Origin: Eubacteriales bacterium
Lineage (GTDB): Bacteria > Bacillota > Clostridia > Oscillospirales > CAG-272
Reading direction: 5' to 3'
Assembly: GCA_045539595.1 (NCBI GenBank)
Contig: JAZQFQ010000058.1
Coordinates: forward strand, 31,736 to 95,735
Length of the DNA: 64,000 nt
The notes below the pieces were generated by a model. It did no database searches. It was not told the origin of the DNA and saw nothing but the letters and a program-made list of their open reading frames with translations. How positions within the stretch are numbered: position 1 is the first letter of the stretch; every line of letters starts with the position of its first letter. This document shows positions 53,235 to 63,220 of the stretch, piece after piece. Both the position numbers and the translations under genes were made by a program.

Positions 53235-53410
53235 ATTGATATTTTCATCCTTATTTGGTAAAATAATATATCATACTGTGTCCATGTGCCGGAACAAATA
53301 CCGGATCGGTACGTCCAAAGGACAGGCATTCGCCCTATCGGCACATAGAATTGTATCATATAATTTGAGAAAAATCCATACCTTCTTGATGAAATGAGGT
53401 GATTCGCAGC

Positions 53411-60045: not shown

Positions 60046-60078
60046 AAAAAGCGGAGGGACATCCCTCCGCTTTTGTTA
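60046..60078. terminator. bidirectional terminator between 59569..60039 (+) and 60095..60520 (-)
   Basis: AAAAA-GCGGAGGG-acat-CCCTCCGC-TTTTGTTATT. Confidence 0.85.
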
Positions 60079-60094: not shown

Positions 60095-60520
60095 TTACAT
60101 AAAATCTATTTCATAGCGCGTGCCGTTTGAGAACAAAACGCCATGGCTCAGCCGAATGCAGAGGATGCAGGTGTTGGGATCCTCGAAATCGTTGTGTCCG
60201 TTATCGATCCACCCGGAAAACACCTGCCGCATTTTACCGGCGATGTGTGCATTTTCCTCTTTGCCAAAGTAGCCTAAATTCACACCGGTTCCCTGGGCCG
60301 TAAACCAATCTCCGGCCATCGCCACGGTGGGATTTCGCTTAATCTGCTTCATTTTCCCGGACAACCCGTGGGTCAGAACATAAAAAGCGCCGTCCTCGTA
60401 AAAGGCATCCACCTCTCGGACATAAGGGATGTTGTCAACGGATGTTGCCAGGGCGATAATGCTGTCGCGGCCAAAACGCTCCGACAGAATGGCTTCTGTT
60501 TCTTTTGTTAATTTCTGCAT
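60095..60520 (-). CDS. pyridoxamine 5'-phosphate oxidase-like (FMN-binding split-barrel) family protein
   Basis: The listed ORF is 5'-extended. ATG 60520 is 10 nt after GGAGGA. MQKLTKETEAILSERFGRDSIIALATSVDNIPYVREVDAFYEDGAFYVLTH... Family call by resemblance only. Confidence 0.5.
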   Translation of the reverse strand: MQKLTKETEAILSERFGRDSIIALATSVDNIPYVREVDAFYEDGAFYVLTHGLSGKMKQIKRNPTVAMAGDWFTAQGTGVNLGYFGKEENAHIAGKMRQVFSGWIDNGHNDFEDPNTCILCIRLSHGVLFSNGTRYEIDFM

Positions 60521-60567: not shown

Positions 60568-60909
60568 TCAGCTCCACGCCAGGATCTGCCGGAACTGATC
60601 GGCGATCCAAAGCGACACAAGGAGCATGCCCGCCACATACAGAACCCGGCCCCACTTTTTCGGTATCCTCCCGGATAAAAAGGCGGATGCTGCCGTTGTG
60701 CACAGGGAAACAAACAGCCAGAACAGCGCCGTAAAGTCGTTGGCATTGAAATTGTTTTCGACTATGTTGCCAAAATCATCAATCACCGGACAGCCGCAGC
60801 CAAGCCATTTCACAATATACGCCTGATTCAGCCAGGCGTAAGGGAGGAACAAAACGATAAATAGCAACAGTGGCGAAGCAAGGATCGCCATCTTCTTAAC
60901 AATCTTCAT
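60568..60909 (-). CDS. small hypothetical membrane protein
   Basis: 113 aa from ATG 60909, 6 nt after GGAGG. MKIVKKMAILASPLLLFIVLFLPYAWL..., 3-4 predicted TM segments. Confidence 0.5.
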   Translation of the reverse strand: MKIVKKMAILASPLLLFIVLFLPYAWLNQAYIVKWLGCGCPVIDDFGNIVENNFNANDFTALFWLFVSLCTTAASAFLSGRIPKKWGRVLYVAGMLLVSLWIADQFRQILAWS

Positions 60910-60928
60910 ACACATCCTCCGAATTCCA

Positions 60929-60947
60929 TTTTCACTGAATTGGACGG
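60929..60947. repeat. 19-nt direct repeat, copy A (upstream of the small membrane protein gene)
   Basis: + strand TTTTCACTGAATTGGACGG. On the coding strand it reads CCGTCCAATTCAGTGAAAA-8 nt-GGAGG-6 nt-ATG. Confidence 0.8.
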
Positions 60948-60952
60948 ATCAT

Positions 60953-62287
60953 TTACTCTTTCACGAATATAAGCGGCATTCCTTCGTCAATGATTGCTTC
61001 TCCTGCCTCCGTGCAAACAAAAGCAACCAGTCCATTGCTTTCATAGAGTTTTCCGCGAACTTCACCTATGTATTCTTCGTTTGTGCCGTTATCATTAAAA
61101 TAATGGTATGTTAGGTACAGAATGATTTCACCGGTTTCATTGTCATATTCAAACGTGCCGGTATACCGGCCCCCCATATCTGTACCATCTGCATACGCGG
61201 AAAGACTAATTTCATTACCTTCCATCTGCACTGTATACACCATCATATATGCATTGGATCGATCGGTGGTATATCGTGCTTTCGTCATGATTTTGACATT
61301 CTCTTTGGAATAATCGCCACCTTTATATATATCTGCTGACCCACTCAAAAAACCAGTAATGTTATTTTCTGATTCTTCACAAGAAACGATACTTCCGTTT
61401 GTTATCGTAACCTTAAAAGTAACATACTGTTCTATAGAATTATCGTATTTCCCCCTGGTGCTGCCGAACACGAAATATACGATTCCATCTTCATAGGCCT
61501 GAATTTTTCCACTCCAACCGCTGCCCGTGTTTCCGTTTTCTCCATATATTGCAACACAAGTCCACGCACCGCCGTTTGTCAGCGGTTCCAGTTCGGGAGT
61601 TATTTCAGTCACACGATACTGTCGAAAGAAGGATTCTGCCATCAAGTCAAATCTGATAAATATGATTTCACCGTTTTCGCCGATTTCATATCCACAGTAT
61701 GTCTGACAAGGAAGTTGTTGTCCGTTTGAATCCATCGTTGCATATATATTGGCATAGTTTCGTCCCTTGTTATCGGTTTGAAGGTCAAAGGTGTAATTAT
61801 ACGGTGCATCGTATTCGTAGGGTGCAGTATATCCGCTAAACCGATAAATTTTACCGTCTTGCTCAATGTAAAGCGGATAATCTGTTTTCACCCAAGTGTT
61901 CATCAATCCACTTGTAACATTTCGATTAAAATACAAAAGACAAAGTGCCCGCAACTCATCCAAATTAGCAAACTCATCCATCTTTACTTCTTGATATCGC
62001 TCGTTGTTATACAGAATTTCATTTTCGGCGTATGTTAATTTCCCATACCTTGTAAATAGTGAATATATCCATTCTGCCTTGTGATAGATATCTTCAAAAG
62101 ACTGCGTGGCAATTTCTTGGTCCGCGACTGTTTCCTGTGGGGGTGTTTCCTCCATATCTGTATCCGTATTTGGTGGATTTACATCCGTATTGGGAGGGAT
62201 AGTGTCGGAGCTCGGCTTGATACTCATACATCCTACAAGTAATAAAACGAGCGACAAAATGAAAATCGGTACAATAATTTTTTTCAT
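60953..62287 (-). CDS. hypothetical lipoprotein, AT-rich gene
   Basis: 444 aa. Lipobox MKKIIVPIFILSLVLLLVGCMS, a Pro/Thr/Asp-rich linker, then Y/N/G-rich beta-type sequence. AGGAGG RBS present. G+C is far below the neighbours. Confidence 0.7.
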   Translation of the reverse strand: MKKIIVPIFILSLVLLLVGCMSIKPSSDTIPPNTDVNPPNTDTDMEETPPQETVADQEIATQSFEDIYHKAEWIYSLFTRYGKLTYAENEILYNNERYQEVKMDEFANLDELRALCLLYFNRNVTSGLMNTWVKTDYPLYIEQDGKIYRFSGYTAPYEYDAPYNYTFDLQTDNKGRNYANIYATMDSNGQQLPCQTYCGYEIGENGEIIFIRFDLMAESFFRQYRVTEITPELEPLTNGGAWTCVAIYGENGNTGSGWSGKIQAYEDGIVYFVFGSTRGKYDNSIEQYVTFKVTITNGSIVSCEESENNITGFLSGSADIYKGGDYSKENVKIMTKARYTTDRSNAYMMVYTVQMEGNEISLSAYADGTDMGGRYTGTFEYDNETGEIILYLTYHYFNDNGTNEEYIGEVRGKLYESNGLVAFVCTEAGEAIIDEGMPLIFVKE

Positions 62288-62309
62288 ACAACTTTACCTC
62301 CTTTGTATG

Positions 62310-62328
62310 TTTTCACCGAATTGGACGG
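62310..62328. repeat. 19-nt direct repeat, copy B (upstream of the AT-rich lipoprotein gene)
   Basis: + strand TTTTCACCGAATTGGACGG, 18/19 identical to copy A. On the coding strand it reads CCGTCCAATTCGGTGAAAA-8 nt-GGAGG-9 nt-ATG. Confidence 0.8.
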
Positions 62329-62380
62329 GCGGACAATGGAAAAGTTCCACGTGCTCATGATTCTTTTATGGGGATTCCCC

Positions 62381-63220
62381 TCACCGCAGCCCGATCCCCG
62401 CCAGCACCTGGGTAGTGGTGATGCCGGTGTATGTATAGGTCAAATCCTCCGCCGCAAACGGCAGATCCACCTCGCCCGATAGGACGATGAGGGCGTAATT
62501 GCGGCGGATGCGGTCCGTGCTGTTCATAACGGAGGCACGGACGGAAGGCTTGGCAATCTCCTCCGTATGGGCGATCAGATCCTCCACATCGCCAAACTGA
62601 TTCATCAGAGCGGCGGCGGTTTTCGGGCCGATCTTATCCACCCCGCGTATATTGTCCGAGGTATCCCCGGTCAGGGATTTATAGGATGCGTAGCGACTGG
62701 GATTGATGCCTAACTTCTGACGGATGTACGCGGGATCGCACAAGATGGAATGATCTCCCCGATACCGGAGCACGTGGACGCGGTCGGTGATGAGCTGGAA
62801 GAAATCGCTGTCCTGCGAGGCGATCACCACATCTGCGTCGCCGCCATAGCGGCGGGCGTAGCCGGCGATCCAATCATCGGCTTCGCACATTTGTGTTTCG
62901 CGGCAGCGGATGCCCAGGTAATCCAGCGCGCGAAAAATATCAGGCAACTGGGAAAAGGGCGTGTCCTCCTCGGGCACGTCGTGATAATCCGGGCGGTTGG
63001 CCTTGTATGCTTCATCGATTTCGGTGCGGGCGTTTTCGCACTCCCCGTCAAAAGCCACGAACACATGGGTGGGGGACACGGCACGGATCATCTTGAGCAG
63101 TGCGCCCACAAATCCCAGGGTTCCCTGGATGGCCTTGCCCCGGGAATTGGTAATCCGGGCCGGCATTCCGTAGAACATCTGAAAGAGCAGATTGCTTCCG
63201 TCCACGATGAGCAGCTTCAC
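62381..63220 (-). CDS. 5'-3' exonuclease (Pol I-type FEN/PIN domain, stand-alone)
   Basis: GTG start 9 nt after AGGAGG. MKLLIVDGSNLLFQMFYGMP...FDG...YKANR...EADDWIAGY...SQDSDFFQL... and an H3TH region ...SDNIRGVDKIGPKTAAAL. Confidence 0.88.
   Translation of the reverse strand: MKLLIVDGSNLLFQMFYGMPARITNSRGKAIQGTLGFVGALLKMIRAVSPTHVFVAFDGECENARTEIDEAYKANRPDYHDVPEEDTPFSQLPDIFRALDYLGIRCRETQMCEADDWIAGYARRYGGDADVVIASQDSDFFQLITDRVHVLRYRGDHSILCDPAYIRQKLGINPSRYASYKSLTGDTSDNIRGVDKIGPKTAAALMNQFGDVEDLIAHTEEIAKPSVRASVMNSTDRIRRNYALIVLSGEVDLPFAAEDLTYTYTGITTTQVLAGIGLR

Follow-up and report, generated by a model that had tools for sequence, protein, structure and literature searches.

A stretch of 64,000 nt from contig JAZQFQ010000058.1 of an Eubacteriales bacterium (the window in what follows) carries on its (-) strand a single AT-rich lipoprotein gene between two nearly identical 19-nt direct repeats, and raises the question of what these repeats are and how the gene came to lie between them. 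The original prediction, made from the letters of the window, had offered two answers: an attachment (att)-like duplication left by site-specific insertion of a one-gene cassette, or a control element shared by the lipoprotein gene and the next gene, which encodes a small membrane protein. Comparison with related loci of uncultured Oscillospiraceae/Clostridia from animal guts led us to favor another answer, which we consider likely: the lipoprotein gene forms a strain-variable, AT-rich one-gene islet inserted in a promoter of the extracytoplasmic function (ECF) type, and the repeat is the duplicated core of that promoter. The case is a tidy example of a fairly ordinary strain-variable gene insertion and not a new kind of system.

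The repeat and its empty site

Copy A of the 19-mer is located at 60929-60947 (+ strand TTTTCACTGAATTGGACGG, coding strand CCGTCCAATTCAGTGAAAA) in the spacer between the lipoprotein and membrane-protein genes, where it lacks a -35 element, while copy B is located at 62310-62328 (+ strand TTTTCACCGAATTGGACGG, coding strand CCGTCCAATTCGGTGAAAA) and now heads the lipoprotein gene; both belong to the (-) strand. The copies are 18/19 identical and in direct orientation, and on the coding strand exactly 8 nt separate each of them from a GGAGG (62297-62301 for copy B and 60916-60920 for copy A), all of which had been described correctly in the original prediction. The match also exceeds chance. With up to 3 mismatches allowed, the window contained just two matches to the 19-mer, whereas 0.03 matches were expected in shuffled windows and two matches were reached in 0/100 shuffles. 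In a motif-free test, a local alignment between the 400 nt before the lipoprotein gene and the 200 nt after it scored 16.5, compared to a maximum of 13.5 in 300 shuffles. That the repeat is a chance match, or the product of an assembly chimera, is therefore hardly credible: the window probably stems from a metagenome-assembled genome and the contigs of the relatives L001 and L003 break right after the exonuclease gene, but neither the 100 nor the 300 shuffles reached the observed match and both junctions recur in independent assemblies (the left one in L002 and L151, the right one in L002, L144, and L146/147).

The lipoprotein open reading frame (ORF; 60953..62287, (-) strand, 444 aa) has a GC content of 0.401 and a GC content at third codon positions (GC3) of 0.382, compared to a GC3 of 0.60-0.74 in its neighbors, and it is the lowest-GC stretch of its length (1,335 nt) in the whole window, in agreement with the proposal that the gene is compositionally foreign. 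The original prediction had the low-GC block end exactly at the repeats, but the adjoining small membrane protein and PNPOx-like genes are of intermediate composition (GC about 0.50), and thus the sharp drop is that of the ORF itself.

An empty site, predicted to have a single 19-mer between the exonuclease and membrane-protein genes, was indeed found among the relatives. In locus L145, the exonuclease gene is followed by GGAACTTTTCCATTGTCTAT, one 19-mer (CCGTCCAATTCGGTGAAAA), TGGAATTCGGAGG, and the ATG of the membrane-protein gene; read on from the exonuclease stop codon, the sequence is ...AAAAGAATAATGAGCACGCGGAACTTTTCCATTGTCTAT CCGTCCAATTCGGTGAAAA TGGAATTCGGAGGGTGTGTATG.... Alignment revealed that the part to the left of this 19-mer corresponds to the window spacer between the exonuclease and lipoprotein genes, which flanks copy B, and that the part to its right corresponds to the spacer between the lipoprotein and membrane-protein genes, which flanks copy A (TGGAATTCGGAGG). 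The surplus of the window over L145 amounts to 1,381 bases and consists of a 22-nt leader with GGAGG, the ORF, ATGAT, and the second 19-mer. When the window junctions were compared with both L145 and L141, this inserted segment was placed at 60929..62309 of the (-) strand, or equivalently at 60948-62328. Its first part is the lipoprotein leader CATACAAAGGAGGTAAAGTTGT (62288..62309), and the 5 nt from the lipoprotein stop to copy A, ATGAT (60948..60952), are kept as TAAATGAT in most contexts. Beyond copy A, the native leader of the membrane-protein gene, TGGAATTCGGAGGATGTGT (60910..60928), is the same in L145 and in L144/L146 except for 1-2 nt. A diverged version of the empty site was present in L141/L142, which contain, in this order, genes for the exonuclease, the membrane protein (91% identical), the PNPOx-like protein, an ORF, and a methyltransferase, but no lipoprotein gene; their single promoter reads GGAAC-N17-CGTCTCATTCTGTGAAAC. 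In these empty-site alleles, as in L145, the exonuclease gene adjoins the membrane-protein gene.

Single-copy sites would also be expected if the lipoprotein gene were old at this position and had been lost by precise deletion between the 19-mers. Exchange between the direct repeats would produce precisely the L145 sequence, and the occupied locus L144 and the empty locus L145 are otherwise identical in their membrane-protein genes (100%), indicating that both come from the same population. However, L144 has a single 19-mer and cannot yield L145 by repeat recombination, and the diverged single promoter of L141/L142 bears no trace of the gene. The GC3 of the lipoprotein gene (0.38 versus about 0.7 in the neighbors) and the narrow distribution of its family, scattered over unrelated loci, likewise argue against an old resident, and we consider this explanation very improbable. 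Regarding the direction of the event, the membrane-protein family has 262 members versus 23 in the lipoprotein family, the lipoprotein genes keep a GC content of 0.39-0.44 across hosts of 0.44-0.61, and they occur in at least six unrelated neighborhoods.

The 19-mer as a predicted promoter core

Based on consensus and conservation, the 19-mer is predicted to be the core of an ECF-sigma-type promoter, with its -10 element and start site, and not a free-standing repeat element. A -35-like element, GGAAC (62344..62348, (-) strand), lies 16 nt upstream of a -10-like element, CGTC (62324-62327, (-) strand), contained in copy B; the complete promoter is made up of GGAACTTTT and CGTCCAATTC, with these 16 nt counted between GGAAC and CGTC. 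GGAACTT is the -35 sequence of Escherichia coli sigma-E, and many ECF promoters are described as sharing CGTC at positions -13 to -10 (PMC3397946); in the numbering of that study, the 19-mer of copy B reaches from about -14 to +5, which puts the insertion point at about +5/+6. The pattern G[GA]AACTT plus CGTC[CT], with 16-17 nt between AAC and CGTC, was found directly upstream of the lipoprotein or the membrane-protein gene in five versions with unrelated spacers, those of window/L002/L145/L151, L141/142, L082-86, L087, and L144/148. The pattern had 22 matches in the 1.18 Mb of loci retrieved, and 14 of them sit at these two kinds of genes. The promoter that the lipoprotein gene owns in other alleles is of the same make, with GAAAC, 17 nt, and CGTCTAAT.

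The likeness to ECF (group 4) promoters, which include the GGAACTT of sigma-E and the CGTC of RpoE-like sigma factors, SigW, SigX, and SigM, lies in the GGAAC(TTTT) and CGTC blocks, which are kept 16-17 nt apart while the spacers drift, and in the downstream genes, which here code for envelope proteins (the lipoprotein and the small membrane protein). They differ in the approximately 10 nt after CGTC (CAATTCRGTG), which are conserved here and lie outside the usual consensus. Copy A has no GGAAC-like element 16-17 nt upstream, the nearest candidates being GAAAG at 11 nt and GGAAT at 31 nt, and for want of a -35 at the proper distance it was rejected as an independent ECF promoter. The idea of a shared control element thus survives in one half: the 19-mer does appear to be a control element, namely a predicted ECF promoter core, but its two copies stem from a duplication and only copy B has a -35 partner.

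Since copy B keeps the -35, the lipoprotein gene would now be transcribed from the captured promoter as the first cistron. Copy A is devoid of a -35 and the 43-nt spacer contains no terminator, and so the membrane-protein gene, the native gene of the promoter, would be read as the second cistron. The locus would accordingly be a resolved instance of promoter capture, in which a horizontally moving gene for a surface protein was inserted just past the start site of a stress-type promoter, became the first cistron, and displaced the resident gene to second position.

RNA folding pointed to a possible further effect of the duplicated core. Within 60914-60947 ((-) strand), base pairing of CCGUCCAAUUC, the 5' half of copy A, with GGAAUUCGGAGG could bury the Shine-Dalgarno site of the membrane-protein gene. 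The hairpin formed by copy A and the native leader had a predicted energy of -14.1 kcal/mol (z -2.15) in the window and of -13.4 kcal/mol (z -2.57) in L145 (118-160). In the uninterrupted promoter the CCGUCCAAUUC half would lie upstream of the start site. The hairpin would form only in transcripts begun upstream of the core. Translation of the membrane protein might then depend on ribosomes that finish the lipoprotein gene 5 nt upstream, which we mention only as an idea. For the diverged L141 site, the corresponding hairpin did not surpass shuffled sequences (z 0.40). The combination of copy B and the lipoprotein leader gave no comparable structure (z -0.08 and -0.36), and the Rfam search returned nothing at the locus and one sub-threshold traJ_5 match elsewhere.

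The hairpin could be taken to mean that both copies are kept by selection as cis-regulatory elements, either an operator or an RNA element (CCGUCCAAUUC/GGAAUUCGGAGG) masking the ribosome-binding site, and are not the scar of a duplication. Besides the buried Shine-Dalgarno site at copy A, which recurs in L145, the equal distance of both copies to GGAGG is in line with such a role, as is a copy A spacer that is better conserved than the flanking genes. This explanation does not account for the one-copy empty site: each window copy has exactly one of its two flanks, and so the second copy arose by duplication. Moreover, the motif decays where the membrane-protein gene is absent (L148, L081, and L087), and the folding results for copy B and L141 and the blank Rfam search at the locus tell against an RNA element. 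Selection for two regulatory copies is therefore judged improbable.

Another GGAAC-N16-CGTCCAA is present in the window at 53291-53318 on the (+) strand, the third such match. It is intergenic and lies about 90 nt upstream of a 288-aa ORF (53399/53411-54274) that starts with VKKDDFLQLLHDELIRHG; a sigma-70-like TATAAT is found between the two. This match may be a promoter of the same type or a product of chance.

Origin and spread of the islet

The lipoprotein leader of the window is homologous to the leader behind the gene's own promoter in L144/L146/L148 (AAAAACACACAAAGGAGGTAAAGTGT), and the similarity to these loci breaks off at the AAAA run that closes the 19-mer on its right side. The left junction falls in a 4-nt AAAA run common to the 19-mer and to the leader behind the lipoprotein's own promoter (CGTCTAATAAATAAATATAAAAACACACAAAGGAGG in L144/L148). 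At the other end, a core-like motif is present 5 nt past the lipoprotein stop even where no membrane-protein gene follows (TTCGTCTAATTCGG in L081, AAGTCCAATTCAA in L087, and TATTCCGATTCGA in L148), and thus short homology to the resident promoter was available at both ends of the gene.

In the ancestral arrangement, the exonuclease gene is followed by a short spacer with the predicted ECF-type promoter of the membrane-protein and PNPOx-like genes. In the window, a 1.38-kb AT-rich segment, composed of a ribosome-binding site and the lipoprotein gene, stands right after the promoter core, and the core is repeated at its far end. Our favored but loosely held view, and the least certain part of the reconstruction, is that the duplication arose by short-homology or illegitimate recombination between similar ECF promoter cores, and that the islet block may then have spread by homologous replacement through its flanking sequence.

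For the genome of the window, this last step was resolved by comparison with the empty-site genome L141. With the insert left out, sliding identity was 79-89% in the exonuclease gene and 61-77% over the promoter, the 19-mer, the leader, and the first approximately 55 nt of the membrane-protein gene, and it rose to 97-98% from about 60850 onward. In the alignment, the poorly matching stretch (copy A, leader, and gene start) was of the L144/L146 type. The change from donor-type sequence to near-identity with L141 showed that the islet reached this genome as an imported block, by homologous replacement of the locus, and that the duplication was not made here; the right crossover lies inside the membrane-protein gene, at 60845..60855 on the (-) strand, as placed by sliding identity and alignment. 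A second mosaic junction was observed in L146 (1435-1776), whose membrane-protein gene is 97% identical to that of L144 while its first approximately 25 nt and the leader are like those of the window and L002.

The core CCGTCCAATTCRG, which comprises the first 13 nt of the 19-mer, occurred in all loci only at these junctions and in four combinations. Formally, the spacer-core-membrane protein leader of L145 is an attB (UP-core-alpha), the spacer-core-lipoprotein leader of the window, L002, and L151 is an attL (UP-core-leader), and the lipoprotein 3' end-core-membrane protein leader of the window, L002, L144, and L146 is an attR (lipoprotein 3' end-core-alpha); the fourth combination, lipoprotein 3' end-core-alternative flank, is found in L151. 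This pattern is what would be seen if the 19-mer or its first 13 nt were a true attachment core, at which a recombinase encoded elsewhere inserts and excises a circular one-gene cassette, much like an att-flanked element that lacks an integrase and is mobilized in trans. The single core of L145 and the core at both ends of the window islet agree with such a mechanism, as do an empty site exact to the base, the travel of the core with the lipoprotein 3' end into other contexts, and a truncated family member in L149/L150 with another 19-nt direct repeat (17/19) on its two sides.

However, no recombinase could be assigned to the element. The insert has one ORF, and its neighbors encode the exonuclease, DHH, SurE, PNPOx-like, and methyltransferase proteins. 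As the original prediction had stated for integrases, the window contained no tyrosine or serine recombinase-like ORF (XerD-like or resolvase-like), in a crude and weak screen, and none lay beside the locus in L002, L141, and L151. The 19-mer marked no other junctions: the 1.19 Mb of related loci had no further copy of the core, and exact matches of the 19-mer in metagenome and viral collections were all unrelated; neither did these loci and scans contain an attP-type circular or tandem junction (GAGTAAATGAT-CCGTCCAATTCRGTGAAAA-CAYACAAAGGAGG). Elsewhere the gene sits at unrelated targets with flanking repeats that are absent or not significant (L081, L082, L144, and L148; marginal in L087, p 0.12), and the window's own islet came by homologous replacement. 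Finally, the A/G difference at position 12 of the 19-mer follows the flank except in L144, and this variation between L144 and the window suggests variable crossover points. A true attachment core acted on in trans is thus an unlikely explanation, even if it deserves more weight than the regulatory one. Of the cassette insertion first proposed, the insertion itself is borne out by an empty site whose flanks match the outer flanks of both copies, while the terms site-specific and att are left with neither a recombinase nor other 19-mer junctions.

The exact 19-mer (CCGTCCAATTCRGTGRAAA) had 42 matches in the metagenome and 11 in the viral collections, all of them single-copy, mostly in one conserved sequence of aquatic and viral contigs and none near a homologue of the window genes, so that the 19-mer is not a dispersed repeat family in those collections. 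In the loci L088-L140, CCGTCCAATTCGGTGGAAA stands inside one highly conserved sequence that recurs in many aquatic and viral contigs, among which GC content varies widely, and is unrelated to the locus.

Known classes of mobile elements fitted the islet to different degrees. Integron attC sites are imperfect palindromes of about 55-140 nt with a GTTRRRY core. The window allele resembles an integron cassette in having a promoterless gene behind a resident promoter and a short core at both borders, but it differs in lacking attC (43 nt from stop to next start, with a small Shine-Dalgarno hairpin and no long imperfect palindrome), GTTRRRY at the borders, IntI, and a cassette array, and a cassette of this kind was rejected. 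A transposon or insertion sequence with target duplication was also rejected, because the insert ends CATACAAAGG... and ...GAGTAAATGAT are unrelated when inverted and do not figure among the inverted repeats detected in the window, and the lipoprotein gene is the only ORF. With integrase-less att elements of the cis-mobilizable element (CIME) type, and with small genomic islets between direct repeats, the locus shares one accessory gene bounded by an 18/19 direct repeat and an exact one-copy empty site, although the repeat is here a promoter core instead of a tRNA end or another usual target gene and the islet spread by flanking homology. We know of no matching integrative element or integrase for this repeat.

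The truncated family member in L149 (959-2017) and L150 (339-1397) retains the C-domain only, has a different N-terminal part, and belongs to a high-GC host. Its repeat (AATTATAACGAGGGTTGAG / AATTATAACAAGGGATGAG, 17/19; 0/300 shuffles) is located at -189..-171 and +13..+31 of the gene, and the upstream copy forms the last codons and the stop of the preceding gene, which we presume to be SLH-like from its C-terminal sequence. The 19-nt length of this repeat may be a coincidence.

The exact attB/attL/attR logic and this second, unrelated 19-nt repeat also leave a small chance for a bolder version, according to which the promoter core CCGTCCAATTCRG is the crossover site of a gene-capture system that moves single envelope genes in and out of ECF promoters, either through an enzyme encoded elsewhere or by 19-bp target duplication. 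We give it little credence; if the core were a real recombination site of this sort, it would be a new way to add genes to a sigma-factor regulon, the captured genes being wired into envelope-stress control.

Some observations weigh against the insertion of the islet into an ECF promoter by short homology. The GGAAC-N15-18-CGTC pattern alone is expected about 2.5 times per 64 kb by chance, and a crude, weak screen of the 64 kb with SigW and RpoE as queries revealed no ECF sigma gene and no cognate sigma/anti-sigma pair, apart from a weak match in a 377-aa ORF. The four junction combinations follow attB/attL/attR logic exactly, and short homology predicts this pattern no better than a site-specific enzyme does. 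The copy A spacer is identical at 41/43 nt between the window and L144, compared to 84.5 and 77.5% identity of the flanking genes, a conservation that could point to a function of copy A itself. In principle, L145 could be a precise deletion between repeats instead of a never-occupied site, although L141/L142 argue against this as a general explanation. The occupied alleles are of three types (window, L144, and L151).

Among the systems compared, a flexible genomic islet exchanged through flanking homology fits best. Such islets, exchanged by homologous recombination in flanking core sequence, show alternative alleles, which here are the empty site, the lipoprotein gene, a 91-aa protein plus the lipoprotein gene, the lipoprotein gene without the membrane-protein gene, and a NUDIX gene; a clear mosaic breakpoint is present in the window too, and there is no essential difference. 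In L144, the place of the spacer before the 19-mer is taken by a sigma-70-type promoter, a 91-aa membrane-protein gene, and the lipoprotein gene under its own promoter; the right junction (TAAATGAT|CCGTCC...) does not differ from that of the window. The L146/147 allele consists of the lipoprotein gene, the 19-mer, and the membrane-protein and methyltransferase genes, whereas the L148 allele has the 91-aa protein, the lipoprotein, a decayed flank, and a terminator. L151 has no membrane-protein gene: its exonuclease gene is followed by the promoter with the 19-mer, the lipoprotein gene, CCGTCCAATTCAG, a different 50-nt flank, and the terminator. In L004, all four genes are replaced by a low-GC gene (1262-1871) that we take to encode a NUDIX hydrolase, followed by a terminator, between the exonuclease gene (83% identical) and the methyltransferase-like gene. 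One small locus in uncultured gut Oscillospiraceae, from the exonuclease to the uracil methyltransferase-like gene, thus holds at least five alternative gene contents. In L082-86, where the lipoprotein gene occupies a different locus, the gene immediately before it has a NUDIX domain on record in Pfam. The contigs of L001 and L003 end 19 and 64 nt past the exonuclease gene, which fits assembly breaks at a strain-variable locus.

The lipoprotein and the neighboring genes

The lipoprotein is composed of a signal peptide, a lipobox, a Pro/Thr/Asp linker, and two modules, an N-domain (residues about 55-232) and a beta-rich C-domain (about 240-443). The lipobox and the PPNTD repeats named in the original prediction are present: the N-terminus MKKIIVPIFILSLVLLLVGC contains L-V-G-C, which conforms to the bacterial lipobox pattern [LVI][ASTVI][GAS]C and whose C20 is invariant in 14 homologues. 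The 23 close homologues are all at least 71% identical and occur in at least six genomic contexts. An exhaustive profile-free search returned 80 relatives and revealed that both modules recur in proteins of 1,000-2,300 aa, five of the six scanned having Peptidase_M56 (BlaR1) near the N-terminus. In P0144, P0148, P0149, P0152, and P0167, both domains are extracellular modules of large Peptidase_M56 proteins and are sometimes repeated within one protein.

The lipoprotein had been described as having no nameable motif, and indeed no family model matched it, as Pfam, NCBIfam, and PDB sequence searches gave nothing useful, but structure prediction yielded an IseA-like domain. A first model built from 14 close homologues had a predicted local distance difference test score (pLDDT) of 34 and was not used, whereas the AlphaFold (AF2) model from 46 aligned sequences reached a pLDDT of 80.9. 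The only confident PDB matches of this model in Foldseek were to Bacillus subtilis IseA, alone or with LytE/CwlO (8i2e_A, 2rsx, and 8wt4_A), with a probability of 1.0 and a template modeling (TM) score of 0.64-0.65, normalized to IseA length, over about 163 aligned columns. Secondary structure suggests that the part aligned with IseA is the N-domain, the output not giving the aligned query residues. The PF16800 profile matched 4 of the 46 aligned relatives (best E 1.3e-4) and not the window protein itself.

IseA (YoeB) inhibits DL-endopeptidases at the post-translational level, and cell-wall stress induces it (PMC8359209). Like IseA (PF16800; 2rsx, 8i2e, 8wt4), on which one domain of its model superposes, the window protein is an exported envelope protein, but sequence identity is about 10% and the window protein falls below every Pfam threshold. 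It further differs in being a lipoprotein with an extra beta-rich C-domain and in that both of its domains also occur in BlaR1-like proteins. The lipoprotein would thus probably be located at the cell surface and bind peptidoglycan hydrolases or inhibit them, and a surface-anchored hydrolase binder or inhibitor under a predicted envelope-stress promoter would be a coherent reading of the locus. For a lipoprotein family that lacked annotation, these results offer a first clue to function, namely an IseA-like domain and domains common to BlaR1-type sensors.

The conserved left neighbor of the insertion site is a 5'-3' exonuclease gene (62381..63220, (-) strand; Pfam 5_3_exonuc_N, E 3e-37, and 5_3_exonuc, E 4e-23). 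On the other side, the small membrane protein of 113 aa (60568..60909, (-) strand), of unknown function, had 262 homologues at E <= 0.001, the 120 listed being 60-97% identical, and no match in Pfam or NCBIfam. Its start at ATG 60909 proved sensible, since the alternative ATG 60915 abuts the Shine-Dalgarno site and the homologues have 113-115 aa. The PNPOx-like gene (60095..60520, (-) strand; Pfam PNPOx_N, E 4.7e-5, below the curated cut-off) probably shares an operon with the membrane-protein gene; in L141/L142, where the gene order is as in the window, it overlaps the membrane-protein stop codon. A hairpin terminator (60047..60074, given for neither strand) separates these genes from the convergent operon and is also the right border of the alternative lipoprotein 3' flank in L151. 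Past the terminator there are two convergent genes, a 157-aa ORF of unknown function and a TRAM/uracil-5-methyltransferase-like gene. No phage DNA similarity of the window was found, and exact look-ups of the window proteins matched no record.

An apparent inverted copy of the core (CTGAATTTGACGG) upstream of the 109-aa gene in L081 was set aside as more likely part of a shared leader, GAATT..CGGAGG, which is also present in L143 and L144. The tail of the L003 contig matches the sigma-70-type promoter that heads the 91/109-aa membrane-protein gene in L144 and L081. A similar sigma-70-type promoter and leader (TTGAAAA..TATGATATACT..GAATTTGACRRAGGAG) precede the unrelated membrane-protein genes of 115, 91, and 109 aa in L143 (4940-5000), L144 (840-925), and L081 (5560-5625), respectively, pointing to another family of promoter-leader modules that can be exchanged among these loci.

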